From IMG/VR virus record IMGVR_UViG_2619619132_000012: a DNA stretch of 12,397 nucleotides; one strand, written 5' to 3'. The position numbers and the translations under genes were made by a program. The notes under the pieces were generated by a model. That model searched no databases and was not told where the DNA came from. It saw only the letters and a list, made by a program, of their open reading frames with translations. Positions 1 through 12,397 of this stretch are shown one piece after another. Position 1 is the first letter of the stretch, and every line of letters starts with the position of its first letter. The stretch comes from a virus. Its lineage: Duplodnaviria; Heunggongvirae; Uroviricota; Caudoviricetes.

Positions 1-1293
<1,293 letters not shown>

Positions 1294-1409
1294 TACCCAA
1301 TTTTTCTGAATCTAAAAAGCGCCTGCGGGCGCTTTAAGTAGAGGTTTAATCATTTGAAAATAAATGGATTTTATTTTTAAGTGTCCATATAACGTCCATC
1401 TTTGAATGC

Positions 1410-1450
1410 AAAAAGCCCACAGCTTCTATGCTGTGGGCTTTGTTTTTTGG
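1410..1450. terminator. rho-independent terminator downstream of serS, probably bidirectional
   Basis: Stem gcccacagc (1415-1423), loop ttctat, stem gctgtgggc (1430-1438), then tttgttttttgg; A-run upstream makes it usable from either strand. Confidence 0.6.
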
Positions 1451-1472
1451 TGTCCTCATGAGTGAGGGAACC

Positions 1473-1506
1473 AAAAAGAAAACCCGCAGTTTTTACGCTG
1501 CGGGCT
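1473..1506 (-). terminator. rho-independent terminator for the minus-strand hok transcript
   Basis: On the minus strand: stem cccgcag, loop cgtaaaaa, stem ctgcggg, followed by ttttctttttgg; lies about 95 nt downstream of the hok stop. Confidence 0.5.
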
Positions 1507-1598
1507 TGTTGTTCACGTCAACTGGAAATAGGGTGCCTTTTCGACCTTTACCCTGGCAACCGATTGACGGGGAAGTTGCCTTCCCCGTCGCGGTTTCC

Positions 1599-1739
1599 TT
1601 ACTGCTTACACTGTAAGAACGCCGCAAACTCCGCTCCCCAGAAACTCATCCGTATTTCACACAGCGAACCGTGCAGCATCCAGATGATGAGGATTGCCGT
1701 CACGCAGAATGTGATGGCCGTAAGCGATTTTTGCGACAT
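1599..1739 (-). CDS. Hok-family type I toxin (small membrane peptide), 46 aa
   Basis: Hand-translated, absent from the ORF track (too short): MSQKSLTAITFCVTAILIIWMLHGSLCEIRMSFWGAEFAAFLQCKQ. Hydrophobic N-terminal helix plus the SLCEIR motif and AAF block as remembered for plasmid R1 Hok (…[22 protein letters not shown]…). AGGAG sits 8 nt upstream of the ATG. Confidence 0.75.
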   Translation of the reverse strand: MSQKSLTAITFCVTAILIIWMLHGSLCEIRMSFWGAEFAAFLQCKQ

Positions 1740-1842
1740 AGCGCTTGCTCCTTTTTCGGGGAGGCGCTAACCTATCACTTGCTGAGGGTAGATGGTTAGG
1801 GCCTCGGGTTAACGTTAAAGTTGACTCGGGGCCTTTCCACAT
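1657..1842 (-). CDS. mok-like overlapping reading frame (translational coupler for hok)
   Basis: 61-aa ORF starting 103 nt upstream of hok in a different frame and ending inside hok, the arrangement known for mok/hok. No sequence homology asserted. Confidence 0.4.
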   Translation of the reverse strand: MWKGPESTLTLTRGPNHLPSASDRLAPPRKRSKRYVAKIAYGHHILRDGNPHHLDAARFAV

Positions 1843-1930
1843 CTGGCCTTCGGGTATTCCCTCCGACCATCAGCCGAAAGGCACCCGCGCGTAATCTATC
1901 GCTTTTTTGTTACTCCGGCAATTCTGCCTG

Positions 1931-2191
1931 TTAATTCTGAGGTAAAGGCAAACTCATCTGATTGTTTCCCCTGTGTGAAGCTGGCAGCTCATGCCACGGG
2001 ATACCTTCTGAAGAGTGAACGCCGGAGGCGTGTTTTGATGTGAATTTATGGAAAGCTTCCAGTGTTGAGAAGCATACGCCGCATTCCAGATTGTTACACT
2101 GGTAATACTTTTGCCGCACGGTGTTTGAATCATTTTCCGGACGACTGGTGCGGATACGGGCAGATGCGCCACAAAGCGGACAACGGAACAT
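1931..2191 (-). CDS. ogr: Ogr/Delta-family zinc-finger late transcription activator
   Basis: 86-aa ORF MFRCPLCGASARIRTSR…YQCNNLECGVCF…; the CxxC…CxxxxC motif and N-terminus resemble P2 Ogr as remembered. GGGAGG SD 6 nt upstream. Sits immediately downstream of D as in P2. Confidence 0.8.
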   Translation of the reverse strand: MFRCPLCGASARIRTSRPENDSNTVRQKYYQCNNLECGVCFSTLEAFHKFTSKHASGVHSSEGIPWHELPASHRGNNQMSLPLPQN

Positions 2192-2231
2192 AGCGACCTC
2201 CCTTAACGTGGTGCTGCCTATTCTAAGTTGC

Positions 2232-3341
2232 TCACTCTGTTTCCGCTATCCATTCCGGGATTTTTGCCTCAAGCTCAAGCTGCGTGGTAAAACCGCTGTT
2301 ATCAATGGTGTGCTCGGCTTTTGCAATGATCCAGTCCTGATTATCAATCTCGCTTTTAAATCCTGTTACCGTGCCATGCATTTCGGGGTAGAGTTCTGCA
2401 CGTCCACGCGCCAGCGTGATGGAGAATGATGCGGCTCCGCGTTGTAGTTGCTGCCACTTTGCCGCCGCTGCGCGTCTTGCTGCCTGCTCGTTCTGATAAG
2501 TCTTGCGTAACACAAACACATTGCCTTCCGCGCCTTCCATATAATCACCTTCACGGCTGCTGCTTTTCTCCTTTTTGGGTTTTGGCGGTTTACGGCGTTT
2601 CACGCTGACTTTTTTCTTTTTCCCGTAATTAAGATCAAGCCAGTAAGCGCGTACCCCCGTATACGCTTCGCGGTCAGCAATGCGGAACTGATGGCGATCG
2701 CCGCTGCTGCGTGTGATGGCAAACGATGGCAACGGCTGGCCCTGTGCGTTCACGCCACCGCCGGGCATGATGAATAACAGATTACCGCTTTTTACCGTGG
2801 TGATTGCGCCCAGCATTTCCGCCATGCGCGTAAGGAAGGACATATCGCTTTCTTCGGTCTGGTCGGCGTGGTCGATTTCGATATCCATCAGCATTTCGCT
2901 GATTTGCGGTTTCAGACCGTACCGATGAGCGATGGCGGATACCACGCGCTCAACGGTCACATCATGCCAGGACACCTCACGTTTAACGTTAAATTCATCC
3001 CGAAAATCTGCGCTTCTGGCTGAAACCGTCAGCCTGTCCGGCGGTCCTTCGTGAGCGATTTCATCAACAATGTAAGTGCCTTTTTCTGTCAGCGGTTCGC
3101 CTTTCCAGCCAATGAGAACCGTCAGACGCGCGCCCCGTGGCGGTAGCTGCAACTGACCATCCGCATCATCCAGCGTGATGGTGAGCTGGTCCGCTTCAAA
3201 TCCCCGGTTGTCGGTCAGTGACAGACTCATCAGGCGCTCTGCCACGCCGGACAGCGTTTCCCCCTCCGCGAGAATATCAAAATCCGGCATTTTCACGGGG
3301 TCTGTGCTCTGACTGAGCAATTGCATGGTGGTGTTGGTCAT
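2232..3341 (-). CDS. D: P2 gpD-like tail protein (late control gene D)
   Basis: ORF track 2232..3362; start moved to the ATG at 3339-3341 (MTNTTMQLL…), preceded by GGGAGGGAAAG. Translation resembles P2 gpD throughout (LSLTDNRGFEADQL, SARSADFR, lysine-rich KKKKVSVKRRKPPKPKK linker, SGFK…QDWLIAK C-terminal block). Confidence 0.9.
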   Translation of the reverse strand: MTNTTMQLLSQSTDPVKMPDFDILAEGETLSGVAERLMSLSLTDNRGFEADQLTITLDDADGQLQLPPRGARLTVLIGWKGEPLTEKGTYIVDEIAHEGPPDRLTVSARSADFRDEFNVKREVSWHDVTVERVVSAIAHRYGLKPQISEMLMDIEIDHADQTEESDMSFLTRMAEMLGAITTVKSGNLLFIMPGGGVNAQGQPLPSFAITRSSGDRHQFRIADREAYTGVRAYWLDLNYGKKKKVSVKRRKPPKPKKEKSSSREGDYMEGAEGNVFVLRKTYQNEQAARRAAAAKWQQLQRGAASFSITLARGRAELYPEMHGTVTGFKSEIDNQDWIIAKAEHTIDNSGFTTQLELEAKIPEWIAETE

Positions 3342-3497
3342 CTTTCCCTCCCTGTGCGGCATGGTCGCATGTGCGTGCGGAGTGGGTTACTGCTTTTTGT
3401 TGTCGCCGTGGCGGGAGAACGGCGCAGGGGTGAGATTACGCGCGTGGTGGGTGATGATTGTTGCCGAATCATTTAACGGATACAAGGGGCTGAAGCT

Positions 3498-4682
3498 ATG
3501 AGTGAAACTCGTTTTCATGGTGCCCGTGTTACGGAAAGTACCGACCTGGTAACAGCGATTAATGATGTTGATTCCAGCGTTATCGGTATCGTGGCAACGG
3601 CGGATGATGCGGACGCGAAGCTGTTCCCGCTGAACAAGCCCACACTGCTGACCCGCGTCAATGACGTGCTGGGAAAATGCGGGACAACGGGGACGCTTTA
3701 TCGTGCGCTTAAGGCCATCGCAGACCAGGTGAGCACAAAGGTGATCGTCGTTCGCGTGGCTGAACACAAAGAAGAAAACGGAAAGACGCAGGATCAACTG
3801 GTTATCGGTGGTTCTGAATCTGACGGCAGCTATACGGGGATGTATGCGCTGCTTGTTGCAGAGCAGGATGAAAGCATCGGATACCGTCCGCGTATTCTGG
3901 CCGCGCCGGAGCTGGACACGGAGGCGGTGACAAAATCCCTGTGCGTGATTGCGGGTAAACTGCGCGCGTTTGTGTATGCCACATGTCATGGTTGTAACAC
4001 GATGGCTGAGGCGATTACCTACCGCCAGAAATTCAACGAACGTGAGGTGATGCTCTTATGGCCTGACTTCATCGCCTACAACCCGAAAAGTGGCAAAAAC
4101 GAAACGTTCCCCGCGCCTGCTTATGCGTGCGGCCTTCGTGCGTACATTGACCATGAGCAGGGCTGGCACAAATCGCTGTCCAACGTTCCGGTTAAAAATG
4201 TGCTGGGGATGTCGAGGCATGTGTTCTGGTCGTTACAGGCCGAAGACAGTGATGCCAACAGCCTCAACAACAAAGAAATCACGACCATTATTCGTCGTAA
4301 CGGGTTCCGCTTCTGGGGCAACCGCACACCGGAAACGAACGCCTACATCTTTGAGGTGTATACCCGAACCGCACAGGTGCTGGCTGATTCAATTGCGGAA
4401 GCGCAGTTTGAAACCATCGACAGTCCACTGACACCTGCGAACGTGAAGGATGTTATCAGCGCCATCAGAGCAAAACTGGATTCGCTGGTTACTGTCGGGA
4501 AACTGATTGGTGCGGAGTGCTGGTATGACGTGGTGGATAACAGCACCACGGGTTTACGTCAGGGGCGTGTGCGTATTCGCTACAAATATACGCCCGTTCC
4601 TCCGCTGGAAGACATGGAGCTTTACCAGTCGTTTACTGATGAATTCTTTGGTCCCGCATTTGCGGTGCTGGGAGGTGCCTGA
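3498..4682 (+). CDS. FI: contractile tail sheath protein (P2 FI-like)
   Basis: 394-aa ORF; translation shares blocks remembered from P2 FI (FPLNKP, LRAFVYA, YRQ.F..RE, WPDF, GWHKSLSNV, IRRNGFRFWGNRT, YTRTAQV, YTPVPPLE). Confidence 0.93.
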   Translation: MSETRFHGARVTESTDLVTAINDVDSSVIGIVATADDADAKLFPLNKPTLLTRVNDVLGKCGTTGTLYRALKAIADQVSTKVIVVRVAEHKEENGKTQDQLVIGGSESDGSYTGMYALLVAEQDESIGYRPRILAAPELDTEAVTKSLCVIAGKLRAFVYATCHGCNTMAEAITYRQKFNEREVMLLWPDFIAYNPKSGKNETFPAPAYACGLRAYIDHEQGWHKSLSNVPVKNVLGMSRHVFWSLQAEDSDANSLNNKEITTIIRRNGFRFWGNRTPETNAYIFEVYTRTAQVLADSIAEAQFETIDSPLTPANVKDVISAIRAKLDSLVTVGKLIGAECWYDVVDNSTTGLRQGRVRIRYKYTPVPPLEDMELYQSFTDEFFGPAFAVLGGA

Positions 4683-5194
4683 TGGCTGTACCAAAACATC
4701 TTCGCTTTTTTACGCTGTTTGTGGATGGTGAAAACGAAGTGGGTAAGGTGACGTCCGTCACTCTGCCTAAGCTGACGCGCAAAACCGACAGCTACCGGGG
4801 TGGTGGCATGATGGGTGCGGTAAGTATTGATCTCGGTCTGGACGACTCCGCGCTTGATGCGAGCTTTGTCATGGGGGGCGCAGTTCGTGAGCTGTTCCTT
4901 AAGTATGGCGGCACGATTGACGGCACGCTGCTGCGTTTTGCGGGTGAATACTACACCGATGCAGAAAGCGACCTGTATGAAGTCGAAATGCGCGGACGTG
5001 TGACGGAAATTGATATGGGGGAAGCCAAACAGGGCGAAGCCACATCACACACTTACGCCATTAAAAACACCTACTACAAGCTGAGTGTTAACGATCGCCC
5101 GTTGTGGGAGATTGACCTGCTGAACTTCATTTACCGGAAGGACGGCAAGGACATTGTGCCCGATCGCATCCGTTCCGCGCTCGGGCTTGGCTGA
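4682..5194 (+). CDS. FII: tail tube protein (P2 FII-like)
   Basis: 170-aa ORF; start overlaps the FI stop (TGATG) with a GGAGG SD; contains the VTSVTLPKLTRKTDSYRGGGM block typical of FII. Confidence 0.9.
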   Translation: MAVPKHLRFFTLFVDGENEVGKVTSVTLPKLTRKTDSYRGGGMMGAVSIDLGLDDSALDASFVMGGAVRELFLKYGGTIDGTLLRFAGEYYTDAESDLYEVEMRGRVTEIDMGEAKQGEATSHTYAIKNTYYKLSVNDRPLWEIDLLNFIYRKDGKDIVPDRIRSALGLG

Positions 5195-5248
5195 TAAGTA
5201 ATATGCAGGCGGCGCAGTGCGTCGCCTCTGACTGAAAGGAGTTTCCTG

Positions 5249-5614
5249 ATGAAAGAGACGAAAAACATCGATACCGAAAACACGGTAGTTACTGACACTG
5301 TGAAAGAAACCAGTGAGCGTGGCGTAAAACTTACCCAACCAATTGAGCGAGGCGGCGAAAAAATCACGTATGTGGAGATCACCGGGGCTATTGAGCAGGC
5401 TGGATCTCTGCGAGATTTGTCGCTGTCTGATGTGCTGAATCTGAAAGCGGAATCCATGTTTACGCTGCTGTCACGCGTGACATCACCGCGACTGGATGAA
5501 GTGACGATCAAAAAAATGGCATCCCGTGACTTTATTCAGTTATGTGCGGTTGCCGTAAATTTTTTGAGCGGTGCGGACTCTGGCGGGAAGAACGAACAGG
5601 CGACGGAAGCCTGA
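5249..5614 (+). CDS. E: tail assembly chaperone (P2 gpE-like), zero-frame product
   Basis: 121-aa ORF between tube and tape-measure genes, AAGGAG SD; positional equivalent of P2 E / lambda G. Confidence 0.75.
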   Translation: MKETKNIDTENTVVTDTVKETSERGVKLTQPIERGGEKITYVEITGAIEQAGSLRDLSLSDVLNLKAESMFTLLSRVTSPRLDEVTIKKMASRDFIQLCAVAVNFLSGADSGGKNEQATEA

Positions 5615-5778
5615 TCACGGTTGTGTGCTTTGAGCACATAGAAGACTTTGTGGCAGATATTGCCGCCATTTTTAACTGGTCGCCCGCCGAAATCTTCATG
5701 ATGACGCCCGGCGAAGTGGTTAGCTGGCGCGAGCGGGCGGCACTTCGCAGCGGGAATGCAGACAATGAAGACTCTTGA
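5249..5778 (+). CDS. gpE+E' fusion chaperone made by programmed -1 ribosomal frameshift
   Basis: The -1 frame relative to E is open from 5542 to 5778 and overlaps the start of T. Slippery heptamer T_TTT_TTG at 5560-5566 lies in frame X_XXY_YYZ relative to E. Confidence 0.6.
5560..5566 (+). other. slippery heptanucleotide TTTTTTG for the E/E' -1 frameshift
   Basis: aaT TTT TTG in the E reading frame; the -1 frame continues FFERCGLW… to the stop at 5776-5778. Confidence 0.6.
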
Positions 5779-8569
5779 TATCCGGGTCGCTTTCAGCGCC
5801 GTTGACAGGCTGACCCGGCCTGCCGAAAACGCCCGCCGCCTGATGGGGCAGTTTGGTGACTCCATCCAGCGAACGCAGGGGGCGATCAAAAATCTCGAGC
5901 GTCAGGCGCGTTCATTTGAGCGCGCCCGCGACGCTGTCAGTAAAGCGGATGCGGGTATCGTGAAAGCACGACGCCAGCTTAACGCCCTTAATCAGTTACA
6001 ACGCACGGGTACAGTGCTCAGCGAAAAACAACAAAAGCTGATGCAGCAGTTAAGCACCCGGCTTGAACGCCTGAATGAATCGCGCACACGGGAAATTCAG
6101 AAAATGCGGGAACTTGGCGGAGAGCTGAAACGCCACGGCATTTCCCTGACAGGCAGCGATAACACAATCCAGCAGGCCATCAGACGCACTGAACAGTACA
6201 ACAACCAGCTTGAACGCGAACGGCAGGCGCTTGCGCGTGTAACGCGGGCGCGTGAGCGGTATTCGCGCGCGCAGGAAACCGCGGGAAAACTGAAAACAGG
6301 TGGTGCGCTGGCAATTGGTGCTGCAGCGGCTGGCGGCTATGCTGCCGGGCGTTTTTTGCAGCCTGCGATCGGGTTCGGCAAAGAGATGTCCCGCGTTCAG
6401 GCACTGACGCGAATCGACAAAAACAGCCCGCAGTTTAAGGCGCTGCGTGAGCAGGCGTTAAAACTTGGTTCTGAAACACAGTTTACTGCGAGTGATGCCG
6501 CCAGTGGGCAGAGCTTTCTGGCAATGGCTGGTTTTACTCCGCAGGCCATTCAGGCCGCATTGCCCGGTGTTCTTAATATGGCGCTGGCAGGTGGCGTCGA
6601 ACTCGGCGAGACGGCGGATATAGGCTCCAATATCCTCACACAGTTCAACCTGACAGCCGATCAAATGGACCGGGTTGGCGATACGCTGACAGCGGCATTC
6701 ACCCGGACCAATACTGATTTACGCGCGCTGGGCGAAACCATGAAGTATACCGGTCCGGTTGCCGCAAAACTTGGTATCAGTCTTGAAGAAGCGGCAGCCA
6801 TGGCCGGGATGCTTGCCAATAATGGTCTTCGTGGAAGCGATGCTGGTACGGCCATGCGCGCAAGTCTGTCCCGCCTTGCATCACCGCCAAAAGCTGCGGC
6901 TGATGCACTGAAAGAGCTGGGGGTGTCAGTTGCTGACGCCAGAGGCAAAATGCGCCCGATGGAGGATGTGCTGCTTGATCTCTATAAGGCGACACAAAAA
7001 TACGGACAGGTGGACCAGGTCTCCTTCTTCAAGGACATCGCCGGAGAAGAGGCGTTCGTTGGTTTACAGACGCTTGTTGCGGCGGCTGGTTCAGGAGAGC
7101 TGCAAAAACTGACCAGAGAATTGCAGGGGGCAAGGGGAGAGGCCGATCGCGTTGCAAAAGTAATGGCCGATAATCTTGATGGGGACCTGAAAAATCTCGA
7201 CAGCGCATGGGAAGGTCTTCGTATTCGCATCAGTGATCTGGTTGACGGTCCGCTGCGTTCTGTCACGCAGTGGCTCACGCGGGTGCTTGAAAAAATCACC
7301 TCGCTGGCGCAGGCCCATCCGGTACTGACGCGCCAGCTACTGATAGCAGGCGGTGCGTTGCTGGCAATGACTGCAACGATTGGCTCGTTGTCGCTGGTTA
7401 TTGGGGTGCTTTACGGAAAGCTGGCCACCCTGCGTCTTGGTTTTGACATTCTTACCCGGTCAATGAATGTCGTCCGGGTGTTGCCTGCGCTGTGGGGAAT
7501 GCTGACGGGTTCTGTTTCTTTGCTGGGAGGCGCTATCGGGGCGCTGTTCAGTCCGGTTGGATTGATTGCTGCTGCGTTTGTGGCTGCGGCGGTTCTCATC
7601 TGGAAATACTGGGAACCCATTAAGGCGTTTTATGCCGGGGTGTTCAACGGGATTATGGAAAGGCTGACCCCGTTGCGCGAAACCTTTGAACGGTTTGGTC
7701 CTGTTTTTGACGCAATCGGGAGCGGGATCAGCCAGGTGTTTAACTGGTTTAAATCGCTGCTGTCACCGATGGAGTCCAGCAAGGAAACGCTGGATAAATG
7801 TACCAGTGCTGGCGAGATATTCGGTAGCGTTCTTGGCGGTGCGTTACAGCTTGTTCTGACACCTGCAAAAATGCTGCTGGATACGCTGGCGTGGATACTT
7901 GAAAAACTTGGCGTCCTTCCGGATGAAGCGGAAAGGGCGCGCAAGAAAATCGAAGACGCACAGCGTGCGGCCATTCTTCAGGACAAGGTTGCCTTGCTTC
8001 AGGGGGACCTGGCGAAAATCAATCCGCCGAAGCCTGTGGAAAATGGCAATGGCACCGGAGGTGATAACCCCAAAGACAATAAACCGCTCACAGACAGCAA
8101 TACCGGTACGCTGCGCAGACTCAGCAAAATTGCTGATAACACAGGTAAGCTGGTTGATGAGACGAAAAAACGCATTGGCCCCGGCGATATTGTCTTTAAG
8201 AACCTGCCCCGCGCACTTGCTGTTCGTGGGGAGTGGCAGGAGCGGAAGATTGCGCAGGTCAGTAAGCCCCCCGCAATTAATATCACACCCGTGGTCCCGG
8301 CTCCGCTGCCTCCGGCGCTGGTCCCTGTTGTTGCGGCCAGCTCCCGCCCGGTGGCGGAGGCCATACGATCTCCAGTGGCATCAGTTCCTGTAACTTCCCG
8401 TAACCGGGAGCCTGTTGCCTCCGGATTTGGTGGTGAAATTCATGTTCATCTGCATAACGTTGTTACGCAGAATCCCCGCGAACTGGCGAAACTGGTCGGT
8501 GAAATGGTCAGGGCAGAAATGGAACGGCGCGCCCGTGCCGGGCGTGGCAGTTTTTACGATAAAGATTGA
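5756..8569 (+). CDS. T: tail tape measure protein (P2 gpT-like)
   Basis: 937-aa ORF; coiled-coil N-terminal part, central hydrophobic/glycine-rich block, position between chaperone and U. The start could instead be the ATG at 5765. Confidence 0.88.
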   Translation: MQTMKTLDIRVAFSAVDRLTRPAENARRLMGQFGDSIQRTQGAIKNLERQARSFERARDAVSKADAGIVKARRQLNALNQLQRTGTVLSEKQQKLMQQLSTRLERLNESRTREIQKMRELGGELKRHGISLTGSDNTIQQAIRRTEQYNNQLERERQALARVTRARERYSRAQETAGKLKTGGALAIGAAAAGGYAAGRFLQPAIGFGKEMSRVQALTRIDKNSPQFKALREQALKLGSETQFTASDAASGQSFLAMAGFTPQAIQAALPGVLNMALAGGVELGETADIGSNILTQFNLTADQMDRVGDTLTAAFTRTNTDLRALGETMKYTGPVAAKLGISLEEAAAMAGMLANNGLRGSDAGTAMRASLSRLASPPKAAADALKELGVSVADARGKMRPMEDVLLDLYKATQKYGQVDQVSFFKDIAGEEAFVGLQTLVAAAGSGELQKLTRELQGARGEADRVAKVMADNLDGDLKNLDSAWEGLRIRISDLVDGPLRSVTQWLTRVLEKITSLAQAHPVLTRQLLIAGGALLAMTATIGSLSLVIGVLYGKLATLRLGFDILTRSMNVVRVLPALWGMLTGSVSLLGGAIGALFSPVGLIAAAFVAAAVLIWKYWEPIKAFYAGVFNGIMERLTPLRETFERFGPVFDAIGSGISQVFNWFKSLLSPMESSKETLDKCTSAGEIFGSVLGGALQLVLTPAKMLLDTLAWILEKLGVLPDEAERARKKIEDAQRAAILQDKVALLQGDLAKINPPKPVENGNGTGGDNPKDNKPLTDSNTGTLRRLSKIADNTGKLVDETKKRIGPGDIVFKNLPRALAVRGEWQERKIAQVSKPPAINITPVVPAPLPPALVPVVAASSRPVAEAIRSPVASVPVTSRNREPVASGFGGEIHVHLHNVVTQNPRELAKLVGEMVRAEMERRARAGRGSFYDKD

Positions 8570-8575
8570 GGAGTC

Positions 8576-9070
8576 ATGGCCATGATGATGATCTACGGCA
8601 TGTTTGTTTTTGAGCTGCGCACGTTGCCGCATCAGCAGTTACAGCAAAACAAAAGCTGGCGGCATGTGAAAAATGAGCGCGTAAACCGCTCAGCAAGCTG
8701 GCAGTATATCGGTGCAGGTGATGATCGCATCGTGCTTTCTGGCGTGCTTTATCCTGAAATTACAGGTGGCGAAGTGTCGCTTTCGTTGCTGACCACGCAG
8801 GCATATACAGGACGCCCCTGGCCTCTGATTGATGGTGTCGGGCAGATTTACGGCATGTATGTACTGACTGAAACGAATACGACCCGTTCCGAGTTTGATC
8901 GCTACGGTAAGGCGAAAAAGATAGAATTTTCACTGACTCTTGAACGCTGTGATGAGGATTTGCGGGAGCGCCTGCAATCCTCATCGTTCAGTGATATGCT
9001 GTCCGGCTTCAAAGATAAGGTCACATCATCCCTCAACAGCGCGGCCAGCTCCGTTAAAGGGCTGTTTTGA
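8576..9070 (+). CDS. U: tail protein gpU-like
   Basis: 164-aa ORF MAMMMIYGMFVFELRTLPHQQL…SWRH…; resembles the P2 gpU family N-terminus; GAGGAG SD upstream. Confidence 0.82.
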   Translation: MAMMMIYGMFVFELRTLPHQQLQQNKSWRHVKNERVNRSASWQYIGAGDDRIVLSGVLYPEITGGEVSLSLLTTQAYTGRPWPLIDGVGQIYGMYVLTETNTTRSEFDRYGKAKKIEFSLTLERCDEDLRERLQSSSFSDMLSGFKDKVTSSLNSAASSVKGLF

Positions 9071-9077
9071 TTAACGC

Positions 9078-9106
9078 AAAACCGCTAATGGTCAGATTAG
9101 CGGTTT
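9078..9106. terminator. bidirectional hairpin between convergent U and invertase
   Basis: aaaaccgctaat-ggtcag-attagcggtttt; the stem overlaps the invertase stop codon (9097-9099), with A/T runs on both sides. Confidence 0.5.
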
Positions 9107-9696
9107 TCATTTTCCTGAGTCTGCCTGGTTGTTTCTTCAGCCTGTATATCGCCTACAGGGTGATAACGATAAATCGTCGATATGCCGATGTCGTAAATGA
9201 TCGCCAGTTGTTTCCTGTCATGACCGTTTTTAATCAGCCTCGCTATTTGCTCGTGTTGTTCTTTTGTCAACTTCGGGCGACGTCCGCCAATGCGTCCTTG
9301 TGCGCGTGCTGCTGCCAGCCCGGCCAGTGTACGTTCTACAATTAATTCACGTTCCATTTCGGCTAAAGCCCCCATGACGTGAAAAAAGAAACGCCCCATG
9401 GGTGTTGACGTGTCAATGCTGTCCGTCAGACTACGGAAATTAACACCTTTTTCCCGCAATTCCTCAATAAGCGTGATCAGGTGTTTCATACTTCTGCCCA
9501 GTCTGTCCAGCTTCCAGACAACCAGCGTATCTCCTTCTGATAGCGTTCTGAGCAGTTTTTTCAATCCCGGTCTGGTTGATTTCGTTCCGCTGATTTTATC
9601 TTCAAAAATCAGTTCACATCCTGCGCAGTTCAGTGCATTGCGTTGTAAATCCGTGTTCTGGTCGTTTGTTGACACACGAATATAGCCAATTTGCAT
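9097..9696 (-). CDS. serine DNA invertase (Hin/Gin/Pin/Cin family), copy 1
   Basis: Start set at MQIGYIRVSTNDQNTDLQRNAL… (AGAGGA SD), not the longer 9825 ORF. Strong resemblance to Pin/Gin as remembered: catalytic-Ser motif GYIRVST, VVWKLDRLGRSMKHLI, SLTDSIDTS.PMGRFFFHVMGALAEMERELI.ERT, C-terminal HTH. Confidence 0.93.
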   Translation of the reverse strand: MQIGYIRVSTNDQNTDLQRNALNCAGCELIFEDKISGTKSTRPGLKKLLRTLSEGDTLVVWKLDRLGRSMKHLITLIEELREKGVNFRSLTDSIDTSTPMGRFFFHVMGALAEMERELIVERTLAGLAAARAQGRIGGRRPKLTKEQHEQIARLIKNGHDRKQLAIIYDIGISTIYRYHPVGDIQAEETTRQTQENENR

Positions 9697-9769
9697 AAAA
9701 AACATCCTCTTTGTTTCGTGAAAAATACAGAGTTGGTATAGGTAGGGATAAAAACGAAAACGTTGGTTT
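9259..9769. repeat. left arm of a perfect inverted repeat (pairs with 11887..12397)
   Basis: Reverse complement matches 11887..12397 at every stretch compared by eye (position sum 21656); first mismatch is 9770 vs 11886. Left limit is set only by the window end on the partner arm. Confidence 0.85.
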
Positions 9770-10280
9770 AGGAGAAGGCTCGGCGCTACCCGTTGGTGTG
9801 CCTGTTCCGTGGCCCACCGCCACACCGCCAGCAGGCTGGTTAAAGTGCGACGGGCGCGCCTTTACAAAAGAACAATATCCTGTTCTGGCCAGAGTCTACT
9901 CGACCCTCCGTCTTCCCGATTTGCGCGGTGAGTTTATCCGTGGATGGGACGACGGGCGCAAAGTTGATACAGGACGTAAGTTGCTGTCCGCACAAGGGGC
10001 AACGCTGTTAAGAACAGCAATGCTGGATTATTATAACCAGGACACTACGGGAACCTCGGGGATAGTCGGCATGGGATTCAACAATGAAGATTCCATTACA
10101 GACCTTCGTGAGGGCAGCTTTAAAATGCCGGACGGGACAACATTCAGCAATCCTGTCATGGCAATGTCAGACAATGGTATGCAGGCTACTATTCTGACCT
10201 CTATCAGAAGCGGGTATGCGAAGGGTATCACTGTCAGACCCCGTAGCATTGCACTTAATTACATTGTGAGGGCAGTTTAA
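9711..10280 (+). CDS. tail-fibre C-terminal cassette A (promoterless segment)
   Basis: Open frame from 9699, no credible start or RBS; conserved junction block GLGEGSALPVGVPVPWPTATPPAGWLKCDG…LPDLRGEFIRGWDDGRK then a variable C-terminus ending NYIVRAV. Confidence 0.8.
   Translation: MFREKYRVGIGRDKNENVGLGEGSALPVGVPVPWPTATPPAGWLKCDGRAFTKEQYPVLARVYSTLRLPDLRGEFIRGWDDGRKVDTGRKLLSAQGATLLRTAMLDYYNQDTTGTSGIVGMGFNNEDSITDLREGSFKMPDGTTFSNPVMAMSDNGMQATILTSIRSGYAKGITVRPRSIALNYIVRAV
9751..9776. other. putative invertase crossover site A (hix/gix-like, 12-2-12)
   Basis: aaaacgaaaacg-TT-ggtttaggagaa; resembles hix (ttcttgaaaacc-AA-ggtttttgataa) in the AAAAC…GGTTT core around a central dinucleotide. Inverted relative to sites B and C. 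Confidence 0.5.
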
Positions 10281-10894
10281 TGAGTAACACTGCAGTTCTG
10301 GATGAAAACGGTATCGCCACTGTAGCGGGCGATATCACTGTATATCACTATGACGAGGAAACCCGGGAATACACCTCATCCTCTGTGGAGTATCTCGCCC
10401 TTGGGGTGGGTACTCCGGCACATTCGTGCGCCGATGCACCGCCGGAGGCAATTTCGGGTTACGTGGTTTGCCGGACTGCCACGCTGAACGGGTGGGAGCA
10501 TGTGCCTGATCACCGCGGCGAGACGGTATACAGCACGGAGAACGGTAACCCTGTTCTGATTACCCAACCGGGTGATTACCCGGCGGACACCACCACAAAA
10601 CAGCCAGCCACGCCATGGGATACCTGGAACGGTGAGGCGTGGGTAACCGATACTGAACGGCAGCGAGCCGCAGAACTGGAGGTTGCCAGACAGCAACGCC
10701 AGCAACGGGTGAAACAGGCGATGGCGTCAGTCGATCTTATCAACCTCAAACTGCGTGCTGGTCGCAGTCTGACACCAGAAGAAACGGCAAAACTGAACGC
10801 CGTGCTGGATTATATCGACGAGCTGAACGCACTGGATATCAGCACGGCACCTGAAATCAGCTGGCCGGAAGCGCCACTGGCACTTGCCAGTTGA
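10280..10894 (+). CDS. tail-fibre assembly chaperone (Tfa / Mu U / P2 G-like)
   Basis: 204-aa ORF; start overlaps the cassette A stop (TAATG); motifs HVPDHRGETVY, WNGEAWVTDTE, DISTAPEISWPEAP match the tail-fibre assembly family. Confidence 0.88.
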   Translation: MSNTAVLDENGIATVAGDITVYHYDEETREYTSSSVEYLALGVGTPAHSCADAPPEAISGYVVCRTATLNGWEHVPDHRGETVYSTENGNPVLITQPGDYPADTTTKQPATPWDTWNGEAWVTDTERQRAAELEVARQQRQQRVKQAMASVDLINLKLRAGRSLTPEETAKLNAVLDYIDELNALDISTAPEISWPEAPLALAS

Positions 10895-10900
10895 ACGGTA

Positions 10901-11384
10901 TCACGCCGCCCTCACGATATAGTTAAACGCGATATTGCGGGGGCGGGTTATGTTAAAGAATGCTCCGTTTAATTCGGCTTTTGCGCGACTGTTTGTTCCA
11001 CCCAGAATTACGTACCACAAATAATCGCTACGGTAATTCCCCGCAAACACCTTATCGCCGCCATAGTCAATATTATTTCCGTTACTCATGTACGAGATAT
11101 CAAGCGAAGAATCGTTATCGTCATGACCGCCGACCAGTGTACCTTTCTGCCATGAAAGCAACTTACGCCCCTCGTCAATCTTGCGCCCGTCGTCCCATCC
11201 ACGGATAAACTCACCGCGCAAATCGGGAAGACGGAGGGTCGGGTAGACTCTGGCCAGAACAGGATATTGTTCTTTGGTGAACGTAGCTCCGTTGCACTGT
11301 AACCAGCCTGCTGGCGGTGTGGCAGTGGGCCACGGAACAGGTACACCAACGGGCAGCGCCGAGCCTTCCCCCAAACCAACGTTT
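10901..11384 (-). CDS. tail-fibre C-terminal cassette B (silent, no start)
   Basis: Frame opens immediately after the cassette C stop codon (TAA at 11385-11387) in the same frame: KNVGLGEGSALPVGV…; same conserved block, different variable tail ending NYIVRAA. Confidence 0.75.
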
Positions 11385-11391
11385 TTATGCG
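11366..11391. other. putative invertase crossover site B
   Basis: ttcccccaaacc-AA-cgtttttatgcg; inner half-site and central dinucleotide match sites A and C, outer half differs. Confidence 0.45.
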
Positions 11392-11945
11392 GCCCTTACG
11401 ATGTAATTAAACGCAACATTGCGGGGGCGCATTGATATCCATGCCCCGGTAAAATTATCCTCCGCTGTCCTTTGAGTACCCATTATGGAGTTATCTGCTG
11501 ATGCAGGAACATAATCGCTATTATTTCCTGCTTTAGGATTAGCTGGGTTTCCAACGGTTATAACAGAATCAGCAGTAGCAAAAGCGATACCTACTTTGAC
11601 ATTAGTATTCAGATCGTAACCGTAATAATCCTGCAAAGCTGTACGAATAAATGTTGCAGCCTGACCACTTAGCAATGAACGCCTCGTATCAACTTTGCGC
11701 CCGTCGTCCCATTCACGGATAAACTCACCGCGTAAATCAGGAAGACGGAGGGTCGGGTAGGCTCTGGCCAGAACAGGATATTGTTCTTTTGTAAAGGCGC
11801 GCCCGTCGCACTTTAACCAGCCTGCTGGCGGTGTGGCGGTGGGCCATGGAACCGGTACACCAACAGGCAATGCAGAGCCTTCCCCCAAACCAACGTTTTC
11901 GTTTTTATCCCTACCTATACCAACTCTGTATTTTTCACGAAACAA
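11385..11945 (-). CDS. tail-fibre C-terminal cassette C (promoterless segment)
   Basis: 186-aa frame with the same N-terminal junction block as A (protein identical through …KEQYPVLAR) and a distinct variable C-terminus ending NYIVRAA. Confidence 0.8.
   Translation of the reverse strand: MFREKYRVGIGRDKNENVGLGEGSALPVGVPVPWPTATPPAGWLKCDGRAFTKEQYPVLARAYPTLRLPDLRGEFIREWDDGRKVDTRRSLLSGQAATFIRTALQDYYGYDLNTNVKVGIAFATADSVITVGNPANPKAGNNSDYVPASADNSIMGTQRTAEDNFTGAWISMRPRNVAFNYIVRAA
11880..11905. other. putative invertase crossover site C
   Basis: ttcccccaaacc-AA-cgttttcgtttt; reverse complement of site A apart from the outer fibre-side half. Confidence 0.5.
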
Positions 11946-12397
11946 AGAGGATGTTTTTTATGCAAATTGGCTATATTCGTGTGTCAACAAACGACCAGAA
12001 CACGGATTTACAACGCAATGCACTGAACTGCGCAGGATGTGAACTGATTTTTGAAGATAAAATCAGCGGAACGAAATCAACCAGACCGGGATTGAAAAAA
12101 CTGCTCAGAACGCTATCAGAAGGAGATACGCTGGTTGTCTGGAAGCTGGACAGACTGGGCAGAAGTATGAAACACCTGATCACGCTTATTGAGGAATTGC
12201 GGGAAAAAGGTGTTAATTTCCGTAGTCTGACGGACAGCATTGACACGTCAACACCCATGGGGCGTTTCTTTTTTCACGTCATGGGGGCTTTAGCCGAAAT
12301 GGAACGTGAATTAATTGTAGAACGTACACTGGCCGGGCTGGCAGCAGCACGCGCACAAGGACGCATTGGCGGACGTCGCCCGAAGTTGACAAAAGAA
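11887..12397. repeat. right arm of the perfect inverted repeat (pairs with 9259..9769)
   Basis: See left arm; identity runs to the last base of the window, so the true extent is unknown. Confidence 0.85.
11960..12397 (+). CDS. serine DNA invertase, copy 2 (5' partial, runs off window)
   Basis: ATG at 11960 with the same SD; the 146 codons present are nucleotide-identical to the reverse complement of copy 1 (MQIGYIRVSTNDQ…RRPKLTKE). Confidence 0.9.
   Translation, partial: MQIGYIRVSTNDQNTDLQRNALNCAGCELIFEDKISGTKSTRPGLKKLLRTLSEGDTLVVWKLDRLGRSMKHLITLIEELREKGVNFRSLTDSIDTSTPMGRFFFHVMGALAEMERELIVERTLAGLAAARAQGRIGGRRPKLTKE

Follow-up and report, generated by a model that had tools for sequence, protein, structure and literature searches.

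A two-invertase palindrome around a multiple tail-fibre inversion segment, very probably two inversion states chained in one draft contig

Why would an invertible tail-fibre segment carry an invertase gene on both flanks, set in a perfect palindrome? The question is raised by a stretch of 12,397 nucleotides (the window, meaning throughout the whole of the DNA analysed), whose last 511 nucleotides are perfectly complementary to an earlier stretch of the same length (511/511, position i pairing with j = 21656 - i). A perfect inverted repeat of this length cannot have arisen by chance. A preliminary description had recognized a perfect inverted repeat of at least 511 bp, which the comparison bears out, and had offered two readings of it: either the palindromic duplication is real, or the contig strings both inversion states together. 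Of these, chaining is the better supported. Very probably, the second invertase appeared when an assembler chained the two states, and is not a real duplicate.

The window corresponds to the final 12,397 bases of the draft Escherichia coli contig JHDL01000022.1 (GCA_000601335.1; handle L010), positions 37997-50393 of 50393, with 100.000% identity (12397/12397). Its Pfam matches are Ogr_Delta, Phage_GPD, Phage_sheath_1, Phage_tube, Phage_P2_GpE, PhageMin_Tail, and Phage_P2_GpU, so the window holds the tail and late-control genes of a P2-type phage: ogr, D, FI, FII, E/E', the tape measure gene T, and U. The host element is a P88/P2-like prophage integrated adjoining serS. An Rfam scan of the whole window gave no match, and thus no RNA element is involved.

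Table 1. Features of the invertible tail-fibre region, in window coordinates
Feature	Position	Strand	Remarks
Complete serine DNA invertase gene, 199 aa, Gin/Cin/Pin/Min (Din) family	9097..9696	-	Pfam, structure match
Left arm of perfect 511-nt inverted repeat	9259..9769		partner 11887-12397
Invertase gene nt 19-86, homologous to annotated cin recombinational enhancer of phage P7	9611..9678	-	sequence comparison
Crossover site A, 26 bp, AAAACGAAAACG TT GGTTTAGGAGAA	9751..9776	+	core TT 9763-9764
Tail-fibre C-terminal cassette A (Collar)	9765..10280	+	Pfam Collar E=1.4e-15
Tail-fibre assembly (chaperone) gene	10280..10894	+	Pfam Caudo_TAP E=3.5e-28
Tail-fibre C-terminal cassette B (Collar)	10901..11377	-	Pfam Collar E=1.4e-15
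Crossover site B	11366..11391	-	core TT 11378-11379; left half = cassette C 3' end (GCCGCATAAAAACG)
Tail-fibre C-terminal cassette C (Collar)	11385..11891	-	Pfam Collar E=2.9e-16
Crossover site C	11880..11905	-	core TT 11892-11893
Right arm of perfect 511-nt inverted repeat	11887..12397		cut off by contig end
Second invertase copy, partial, 146 codons, identical to first	11960..12397	+	ends at draft contig end

Judged from its domains and structural matches, the recombinase is a Gin-like serine invertase of the Din family. The complete gene (Table 1), annotated in RefSeq genomes as WP_001375851.1 and transcribed away from the invertible segment, encodes an amino-terminal catalytic domain (Pfam Resolvase, E=2.4e-51) and a carboxyl-terminal helix-turn-helix (HTH_7, E=1.4e-12, residues 138-180). 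The protein matches the Hin DNA-binding domain 1hcr (E=1.6e-11) and, with residues 1-185 aligned, the Mu Gin structures 4m6f and 3uj3 (E=2.4e-91); the motif YIRVSTNDQ, in which Ser9 lies within VSTNDQ, is conserved relative to Gin 4m6f. Part of the coding sequence may also serve as a recombinational enhancer. The phage P7 record AF503408 annotates the cin enhancer at nt 19-86 of the gene, and the same interval of the window invertase is 77.9% identical to it, against 54.7% for nt 87-150, a comparison confounded by protein-coding constraint. The similarity to P7 makes this stretch a candidate for the Fis-dependent enhancer that such invertases use in cis.

The segment itself contains three promoterless fibre cassettes and a single chaperone gene, the latter downstream of cassette A and annotated in RefSeq genomes as a tail fiber assembly protein. 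All three crossover sites share one form, a left half followed by TT GGTTT(A/G)GG(A/G)GAA: each is 26 bp long with a 2-bp core, and oppositely oriented sites are present. These sequences fit the consensus for Mu, P1, e14, and p15B given in PMC4134206. Because a third site, B, is present, the segment is of the three-cassette multiple-inversion type.

Comparison with related records shows where the exchanges occur. The left half of site A lies next to the invertase and the right half belongs to cassette A; that left half is joined instead to cassette C in L001, L002, and L003, and to cassette B in L004, with the swap falling exactly at TT. At site C the window's left half is the second invertase-proximal half, whereas in L008 and L009 the cassette half of this site is joined to a half-site from the constant part of fibre gene H (CTCAATTACC TT; H-constant half-site sequence GTCCTCAATTACCTTGGTTT). 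Left and right half-sites are variously combined in L001, L002, L004, L008, and L017, and the exchange is always at TT.

The cassettes accordingly meet the constant region in different genomes. Cassette A, which in the window orientation has neither promoter nor constant region, joins the constant part of H in FDAARGOS_1077 (L017), where the tail fiber protein is encoded at 2698-4521; cassette B is fused to H in MS10860 (L001, 20415-22199); and cassette C is fused to H in L008, giving a 516-aa fibre, and in L009. With slashes marking junctions and tfa the assembly gene, the isomers read inv/A-tfa-B-C/H in L008, inv/C-B-tfa-A/H in L017, inv/C/A-tfa-B/H in L001, and inv/B-tfa-A/C/H in L019. At least four arrangements of the segment, with its three sites and three cassettes, therefore exist in finished genomes or long contigs, and both orientations of the whole segment are among them. 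The proposal that every cassette is silent fits the contig as it stands but probably does not apply to the strain.

The limits of the palindrome coincide with these sites. The first mismatch between the arms pairs 9770 with 11886, so that perfect identity stops 5 nt (GGTTT) beyond the TT core, just as the preliminary description had placed it relative to sites A and C. Past the arms, identity is 91.3% (190/208) across 9770-9977, in keeping with the estimate of about 90% for cassettes A and C, and is gone by about 10030. The further claim that the breakpoint lies at the crossover position gains support from other genomes, where the half-sites swap at this same dinucleotide. On the outer side, the left limit at 9259 is determined solely by the end of the window at 12397. 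The right arm stops 504 nt past the crossover core, at the last base of JHDL01000022.1, and within the contig it does not run on into U, T, and E. Since the window ends where the draft contig ends, the second invertase is only a 146-codon fragment (L010 gene 12250-12687, a partial Resolvase call truncated by the contig edge). Invertase sequence does flank the segment on both sides in opposite orientation, as described, when the contig is read literally; its second copy is this truncated piece at a contig terminus.

Each junction of the window, taken singly, is a familiar one. L008 and L009 are 99.8% identical to the window over positions 1-11893; at the TT core they enter the H constant region and continue into I, J, W, and V. 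The finished genome FDAARGOS_1077 matches window positions 9757-12397 in one piece (99.2%), in the order H::A - tfa - B - C / invertase - U - T. This single-piece match identifies the right-hand C/invertase junction as the normal flipped state of a locus with one invertase; past the invertase come U and T in reversed order, which is what would be predicted if the arm belongs to this same locus. The left junction (invertase/A) thus fits one orientation and the right junction (C/invertase) the other; the latter also occurs in finished genomes and metagenome contigs. Most likely, then, both invertase copies represent one single-copy gene, the second having been read on molecules whose segment was flipped.

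Copy number was surveyed in finished genomes. Identical invertases covering both arms occur in 0 of 5,426 finished E. coli genomes, and among the 30 best records listed for the invertase allele, 29 have just one copy. TUM13770, the only listed finished genome in which the invertase query falls in two places, was considered as a two-copy case and rejected: its serS locus has one invertase and represents another isomer.

These observations suggest how the contig could have formed. The locus has three promoterless cassettes (A with the chaperone gene, B, and C), each with a 26-bp TT-core site at its 5' end; on the chromosome there would be one Gin-like invertase, and the far side of the segment would be the constant part of H. 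Inversion between oppositely oriented sites fuses a different cassette to H. The sequenced DNA, presumably from a mixed culture, would have held both orientations, invertase/A...C/H and invertase/C...A/H. The assembler then probably entered the segment through invertase/A, left it through the C/invertase junction of the other orientation, and so came back into the single-copy invertase region from the opposite direction, covering 504 nt before the contig ended. With orientations chained in this manner, the two-invertase palindrome would belong to the contig and not to any single DNA molecule.

Similar effects have been documented elsewhere. Of the reads from E. coli EC958, about 50% showed prophage fibre segments flipped to the other orientation, and spurious contigs resulted; the authors warn of artefactual duplications in phage regions (PMC4134206). 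Identical site halves, TCCTCAATTACCTT GGTTTAGGAGAA and GAGAGATAAACGTT GGTTTGGGGGAA, are listed in that paper. A metagenome k127 unitig (L006) equals window positions 9763-12013; its first bases are the TT of site A and it runs 126-127 nt past the first base specific to C, as expected of a unitig from a mixed-orientation sample. A de Bruijn k-mer overhang (k=127) was considered as the source of arm length; it fits this unitig, and was rejected for JHDL01000022.1, with its 504/511-nt arm. That mismatch between the 504-nt re-entry and a simple overhang counts against chaining, as does the demonstration, in strain 4/0, that an invertase-segment-invertase arrangement can be real.

Strain 4/0 (NZ_CP023849, finished) has the order inv1, cassettes, inv2, followed by aroA...dmsA in inverted orientation, with breakpoints at TT cores; the reciprocal junction, H, cassettes, H2, lies 45 kb away. 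Two prophages have here undergone a real inversion of 45 kb, which gave the strain its two different invertases; no other such case occurs among the 5,426 finished genomes.

Might the window record a comparable event? One chromosome would then hold two same or near-identical prophage copies (or invertase plus shufflon ends) in inverted orientation, and recombination of site A with site C would have inverted the intervening chromosome. Strain 4/0 establishes that these sites can drive recombination between prophages, and the window breakpoint lies exactly at the core. Yet the 4/0 invertases are only 77-80% identical, whereas the window arms are 100% identical over 511 nt, and the survey above found the allele almost always single, with identical copies on both sides in none of the finished genomes. 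The contig, moreover, extends without a break across 38 kb of chromosome and the end of the prophage, which is unlikely for a short-read assembly of a prophage present twice, and the arm stops after 504 nt at the contig end. Inversion between two prophages is therefore unlikely; it predicts a reciprocal fibre-segment-fibre junction elsewhere. A real local palindromic duplication has still less to recommend it and is very improbable. It would have arisen by sister-chromosome recombination (A x C) or through replication folding back where the cassette 5' ends form an inverted repeat (roughly 230 nt, 91%). Site geometry suggests that an A x C exchange between two molecules could yield invertase-segment-invertase with its breakpoint at the core, but the product of sister exchange is a head-to-head chromosome dimer, which cannot segregate; fold-back replication would not set the junction precisely at the TT core; and the finished genomes contain no such structure. 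Gin, Hin, and Cin need both sites and a Fis-bound enhancer on one supercoiled molecule, and to our knowledge recombination between sites on different molecules is essentially absent. This need for sites in cis, together with a product that could not be inherited, led to the rejection of a dimer formed by the invertase from sister chromosomes.

There is equally little probability that the palindrome arose without the invertase, as a technical hairpin chimera produced by library or read fold-back at the contig end. Such contig-end artefacts are recognized, and the EC958 authors screened for them (PMC4134206). A random fold-back, however, would not turn exactly at two cores separated by 2.1 kb of non-palindromic sequence, and the C/invertase junction it would have to create exists in finished genomes and metagenome contigs; a random chimera was rejected on both counts. 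The chaining of two inversion states is left as the reading that the evidence favours.

As a discovery the locus has little importance; its value is practical. The invertible tail-fibre system itself is of a textbook kind, and the same site sequences appear for closely related E. coli prophages in the EC958 genome paper. What it illustrates is that, when a culture contains an invertible segment in both orientations, draft contigs can terminate in false inverted duplications that look like uncommon palindromes when genomes are scanned. Strain 4/0 shows that these sites now and then bring about real inversions as well, spanning tens of kilobases from one prophage to another, and it serves as a positive control for a real two-invertase arrangement, in which the invertases differ, one flank is chromosomal, and fibre meets fibre at a reciprocal junction. 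Were the two-prophage reading true, the window would be the second independent case, after 4/0, of phage host-range switches driving bacterial chromosome rearrangement.

How does the locus compare with known inversion systems? The preliminary description contrasted it with Mu G, P1 C, e14 P, and Salmonella H, characterized as having a constant 5' fibre gene on one side, a single invertase on the other, and only short crossover sites as inverted repeats. This is slightly off on two counts: hin lies within its own segment and is unrelated to fibres, and the P1 C segment is bordered by long inverted repeats. The Mu G/Gin system does resemble the window in having its invertase gene outside the segment and reading away from it, the fibre constant region opposite, and a 26-bp site with a 2-bp core. 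Mu G differs in having two sites and two cassette-plus-chaperone pairs; the window has three cassettes, one chaperone gene, a TT core, and a P2-like rather than a Mu-like phage. The label "shufflon" is apt loosely, in that cassettes are permuted, and inapt in the strict sense, which calls for the tyrosine recombinase Rci. A strict R64/IncI1 shufflon (Rci, sfx sites, pilV) was rejected: the recombinase here is a serine invertase and the cassettes are phage fibre Collar domains.

Among relatives, the P88-like phages of the P2 family (Xuanwuvirus; P88, NC_026014, and P884B11) share with the window a gpU gene followed directly by a DNA invertase gene, at 86-88% nucleotide identity, and the P2-type tail module D, FI, FII, E, T, and U. 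Their records leave the cassette region unmatched, only window positions 8576-9690 aligning. The EC958 prophage is like the window in its H-constant half (TCCTCAATTACC TT) and cassette halves (GGTTTAGGAGAA and GGTTTGGGGGAA), its Phage_fibre_2 constant part with Collar cassettes, and its mixed orientations leading to spurious contigs; there the alternative orientation formed separate extra contigs in a long-read assembly (PMC4134206), whereas in the window the states are apparently chained in one draft contig. Strain 4/0 shares the invertase-cassettes-invertase order with breakpoints at TT cores, and differs in its distinct invertase genes (77-80%), the chromosomal flank (aroA) past the second of them, the reciprocal junction, and its finished state.

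The p15B Min system has six sites and resides on a P1-like plasmid. As far as the Sandmeier review of Din-family inversion systems, the source for p15B Min, is cited in PMC4134206, Min resembles the window in having a Din-family invertase, more than two sites, and several promoterless fibre C-terminal cassettes permuted by inversion. The window differs in its three sites, three cassettes, single chaperone gene, and chromosomal P2-like prophage, the comparison being one of organization. The locus is thus of a known kind: a Gin-like invertase with a Min/p15B-type multiple tail-fibre inversion, carried by a P88/P2-like prophage.

The inverted repeat at the end of the window is as the preliminary description reported: bases 9259-9769 and 12397-11887 are perfectly complementary (511/511, with base i paired with base 21656 - i), and two invertase copies lie in opposite orientation. 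One copy is complete, the other partial. The first mismatched pair is 9770 and 11886; perfect identity indeed ends 5 nt past the central TT of crossover sites A and C. The break lies within AAAACGAAAACG TT GGTTTAGGAGAA (site A) and AAAACGAAAACG TT GGTTTGGGGGAA (site C). Beyond the arms, the resemblance between fibre cassettes A and C, put earlier at about 90%, measures 91.3% (190/208) up to 9977 and is gone by about 10030.

Features of the window, and inversion endpoints in strain 4/0
Feature	Position	Strand	Remarks
serS	1-1293		window starts at serS ATG
Hok/Gef-family toxin ORF	1599-1739	-	46 aa; annotated in RefSeq relatives
ogr, D		-	end of P2-like prophage
D (late control / baseplate hub)	2232-3362	-	full 376-aa ORF
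Sheath FI, tube FII, E/E', tape measure T, U	within 1931-9070 (with ogr and D)	+	
Invertase	9097-9696	-	complete gene, 199 aa
Cassette A, tail-fibre assembly gene, cassettes B and C			order past U and invertase; A with Collar domain; B and C on - strand
Site B (third crossover site)	11366-11391		
Second invertase copy	from 11960	+	146 codons, runs off window
Strain 4/0 inversion endpoints	L002 18113-21506; L016 35167-39072		TT crossover cores

Other genomes contain the same segment in different arrangements. Two long contigs (L008 and L009) are 99.8% identical to window bases 1-11893 and diverge exactly at the site C TT; past it lie the constant region of H, the tail-fibre gene, then I, J, W, V, and the remainder of the prophage, giving a fibre of 516 or 472 aa with cassette C as its C-terminus. 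The finished genome FDAARGOS_1077 matches bases 9757-12397 in one piece (99.2%), in the order I, H fused to cassette A, assembly gene (tfa), B, C, invertase, and reversed U and T: a flip of the whole segment relative to L008. The order is invertase / C / A-tfa-B / H in MS10860 and invertase / B-tfa-A / C / H in TUM13770. The three-cassette segment (window 9751-11905) is found as four isomers in these finished or long contigs (L008, FDAARGOS_1077, MS10860, and TUM13770). Left half-sites are of three kinds (invertase-proximal, 3' end of cassette C, and H-constant), one each per genome. Every kind is joined to differing cassette halves, and the swap always falls at TT. TT is therefore the exchange point, as the earlier placement of the breakpoint at the crossover position had implied, and the segment is a multiple-inversion system. 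Among the compared genomes, only the window arrangement has the invertase-proximal half twice and lacks the H-constant half.

The cassette A ORF leads to contig JHDL01000022.1 (50,393 bases; draft GCA_000601335.1), whose final 12,397 bases are identical to the window (12397/12397, 100.000%); the window end is therefore the contig end. Only 504 nt of contig lie past the site C TT core, and the second invertase, called right at the contig edge, is an incomplete gene. The preliminary description had asked whether the palindrome continues beyond 12397; JHDL01000022.1 ends at that base.

The bracketing by two invertases is most likely an artefact. Very probably, a single-invertase locus in mixed orientations was assembled by chaining flank, segment, and reverse flank. 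The strain would hold a normal locus with one invertase, and the DNA that was sequenced would have included molecules of both whole-segment orientations. The invertase flank would join both segment ends in the assembly graph, making the walk flank - segment - reverse flank valid; the assembler presumably took this walk and broke off once it had re-used 504 nt of flank. What has been observed is how the sites are built, that exchange falls at TT, that finished genomes exist in each of the two states, and that the contig ends here; the mixed culture and the assembler's path are inferred. The preliminary description had left a choice between a real palindromic duplication and chained inversion states: the contig end, H in L008 and L009, and the flip in FDAARGOS_1077 favor the chaining and disfavor the duplication.

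There is also evidence that both orientations coexist in samples. A metagenome unitig (ENA ERZ927271, k=127) equals window 9763-12013. Its left boundary is exactly the site A TT, and its right boundary lies 126-127 nt beyond the first base specific to C. These boundaries, expected of a de Bruijn unitig with A on two left halves and the invertase half on both A and C within one sample, are the signature of such coexistence in nature. In the EC958 genome paper (PMC4134206), whose listed crossover sites have the same halves as those of the window, about half of the long reads covering three prophage fibre segments showed the alternative orientation. Spurious contigs resulted, and the paper warns that merging such contigs creates artefactual duplications in phage regions.

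A real inversion in cis, involving two copies of a prophage whose invertases are identical, is unlikely. Strain 4/0 (NZ_CP023849) demonstrates that such an event could in principle occur: among 5,426 finished E. coli genomes, it is the only one with a real two-invertase arrangement. There, invertase 1, cassettes, and a second recombinase are followed by an inverted aroA, serC ... dmsA stretch; about 45 kb on lies the remainder of the P2-like prophage, whose H faces the fibre gene of a second, different myovirus prophage across another cassette set. This is a real inversion of about 45 kb (aroA...dmsA) between crossover sites of two prophages, and its two ends are invertase 1-cassettes-invertase 2 and fibre-cassettes-fibre. 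The window differs in every diagnostic respect: the 4/0 invertases are only 77-80% identical to each other, chromosomal genes follow the second, and strain 4/0 has the reciprocal fibre-segment-fibre junction. None of the 5,426 genomes carries identical invertases on the two sides. Against a two-prophage origin of the window stand its perfectly identical arms, the single-copy state of the invertase allele in finished genomes (29 of the 30 best records carrying it are single-copy), and a contig that passes from prophage to chromosome without a break.

A sister-chromosome or fold-back palindrome is highly improbable. Gin-type invertases require their sites in cis, with which such an event conflicts, and its product would be a non-inheritable chromosome. 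Just as improbable is a random hairpin chimera, which leaves unexplained why the turning points fall exactly on two crossover cores.

FI-FII-E-E'-T-U lie on the plus strand, versus D and ogr (with H-I-J-W-V in relatives) on the minus strand; canonical P2 has FI to D as one co-directional block. Many E. coli genomes share this gene orientation, which is thus a lineage feature rather than an assembly error. The D locus of MS10860, 4/0, and TUM13770 is annotated in RefSeq only as an 801-nt 'VgrG/Pvc8 family' CDS plus a pseudogene fragment. The Hok/Gef-family ORF sits between serS and the prophage ogr; scanning with Rfam gathering thresholds gave no Sok-type antisense RNA. The assembly gene is downstream of cassette A only; fibres with B or C ends would have no same-strand downstream chaperone gene.

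The invertase matches Mu Gin structures 4m6f and 3uj3 over residues 1-185 (E=2.4e-91), with a conserved active-site serine motif and a C-terminal HTH_7 domain; it is a close relative of Mu Gin. The other tested features of the Din invertase family are present; for the enhancer, the evidence is only suggestive. Nucleotides 19-86 of the gene (window 9611-9678, minus strand) share 77.9% identity with the cin enhancer annotated in phage P7, versus 54.7% for the next 64 nt of coding sequence, values compatible with a predicted Fis-dependent enhancer conserved inside the gene. In KI522272.1 (GCA_000485695.1; 13342-14020), a relative, the invertase is split into two ORFs (98 aa and 93 aa), with an unaligned stretch of about 30 nt that corresponds to window 9396-9425; this copy may be inactivated.

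The underlying inversion system is already known, and its site sequences have been published for E. coli ST131 prophages. P88-like P2-family phages share the adjacency of U and invertase (86-88% identity). In the strict sense (R64/Rci), the segment is no shufflon. Rather, it works like the Gin, Cin, Pin, and Min systems; having three sites and four observed isomers, it most resembles Min of p15B in logic.
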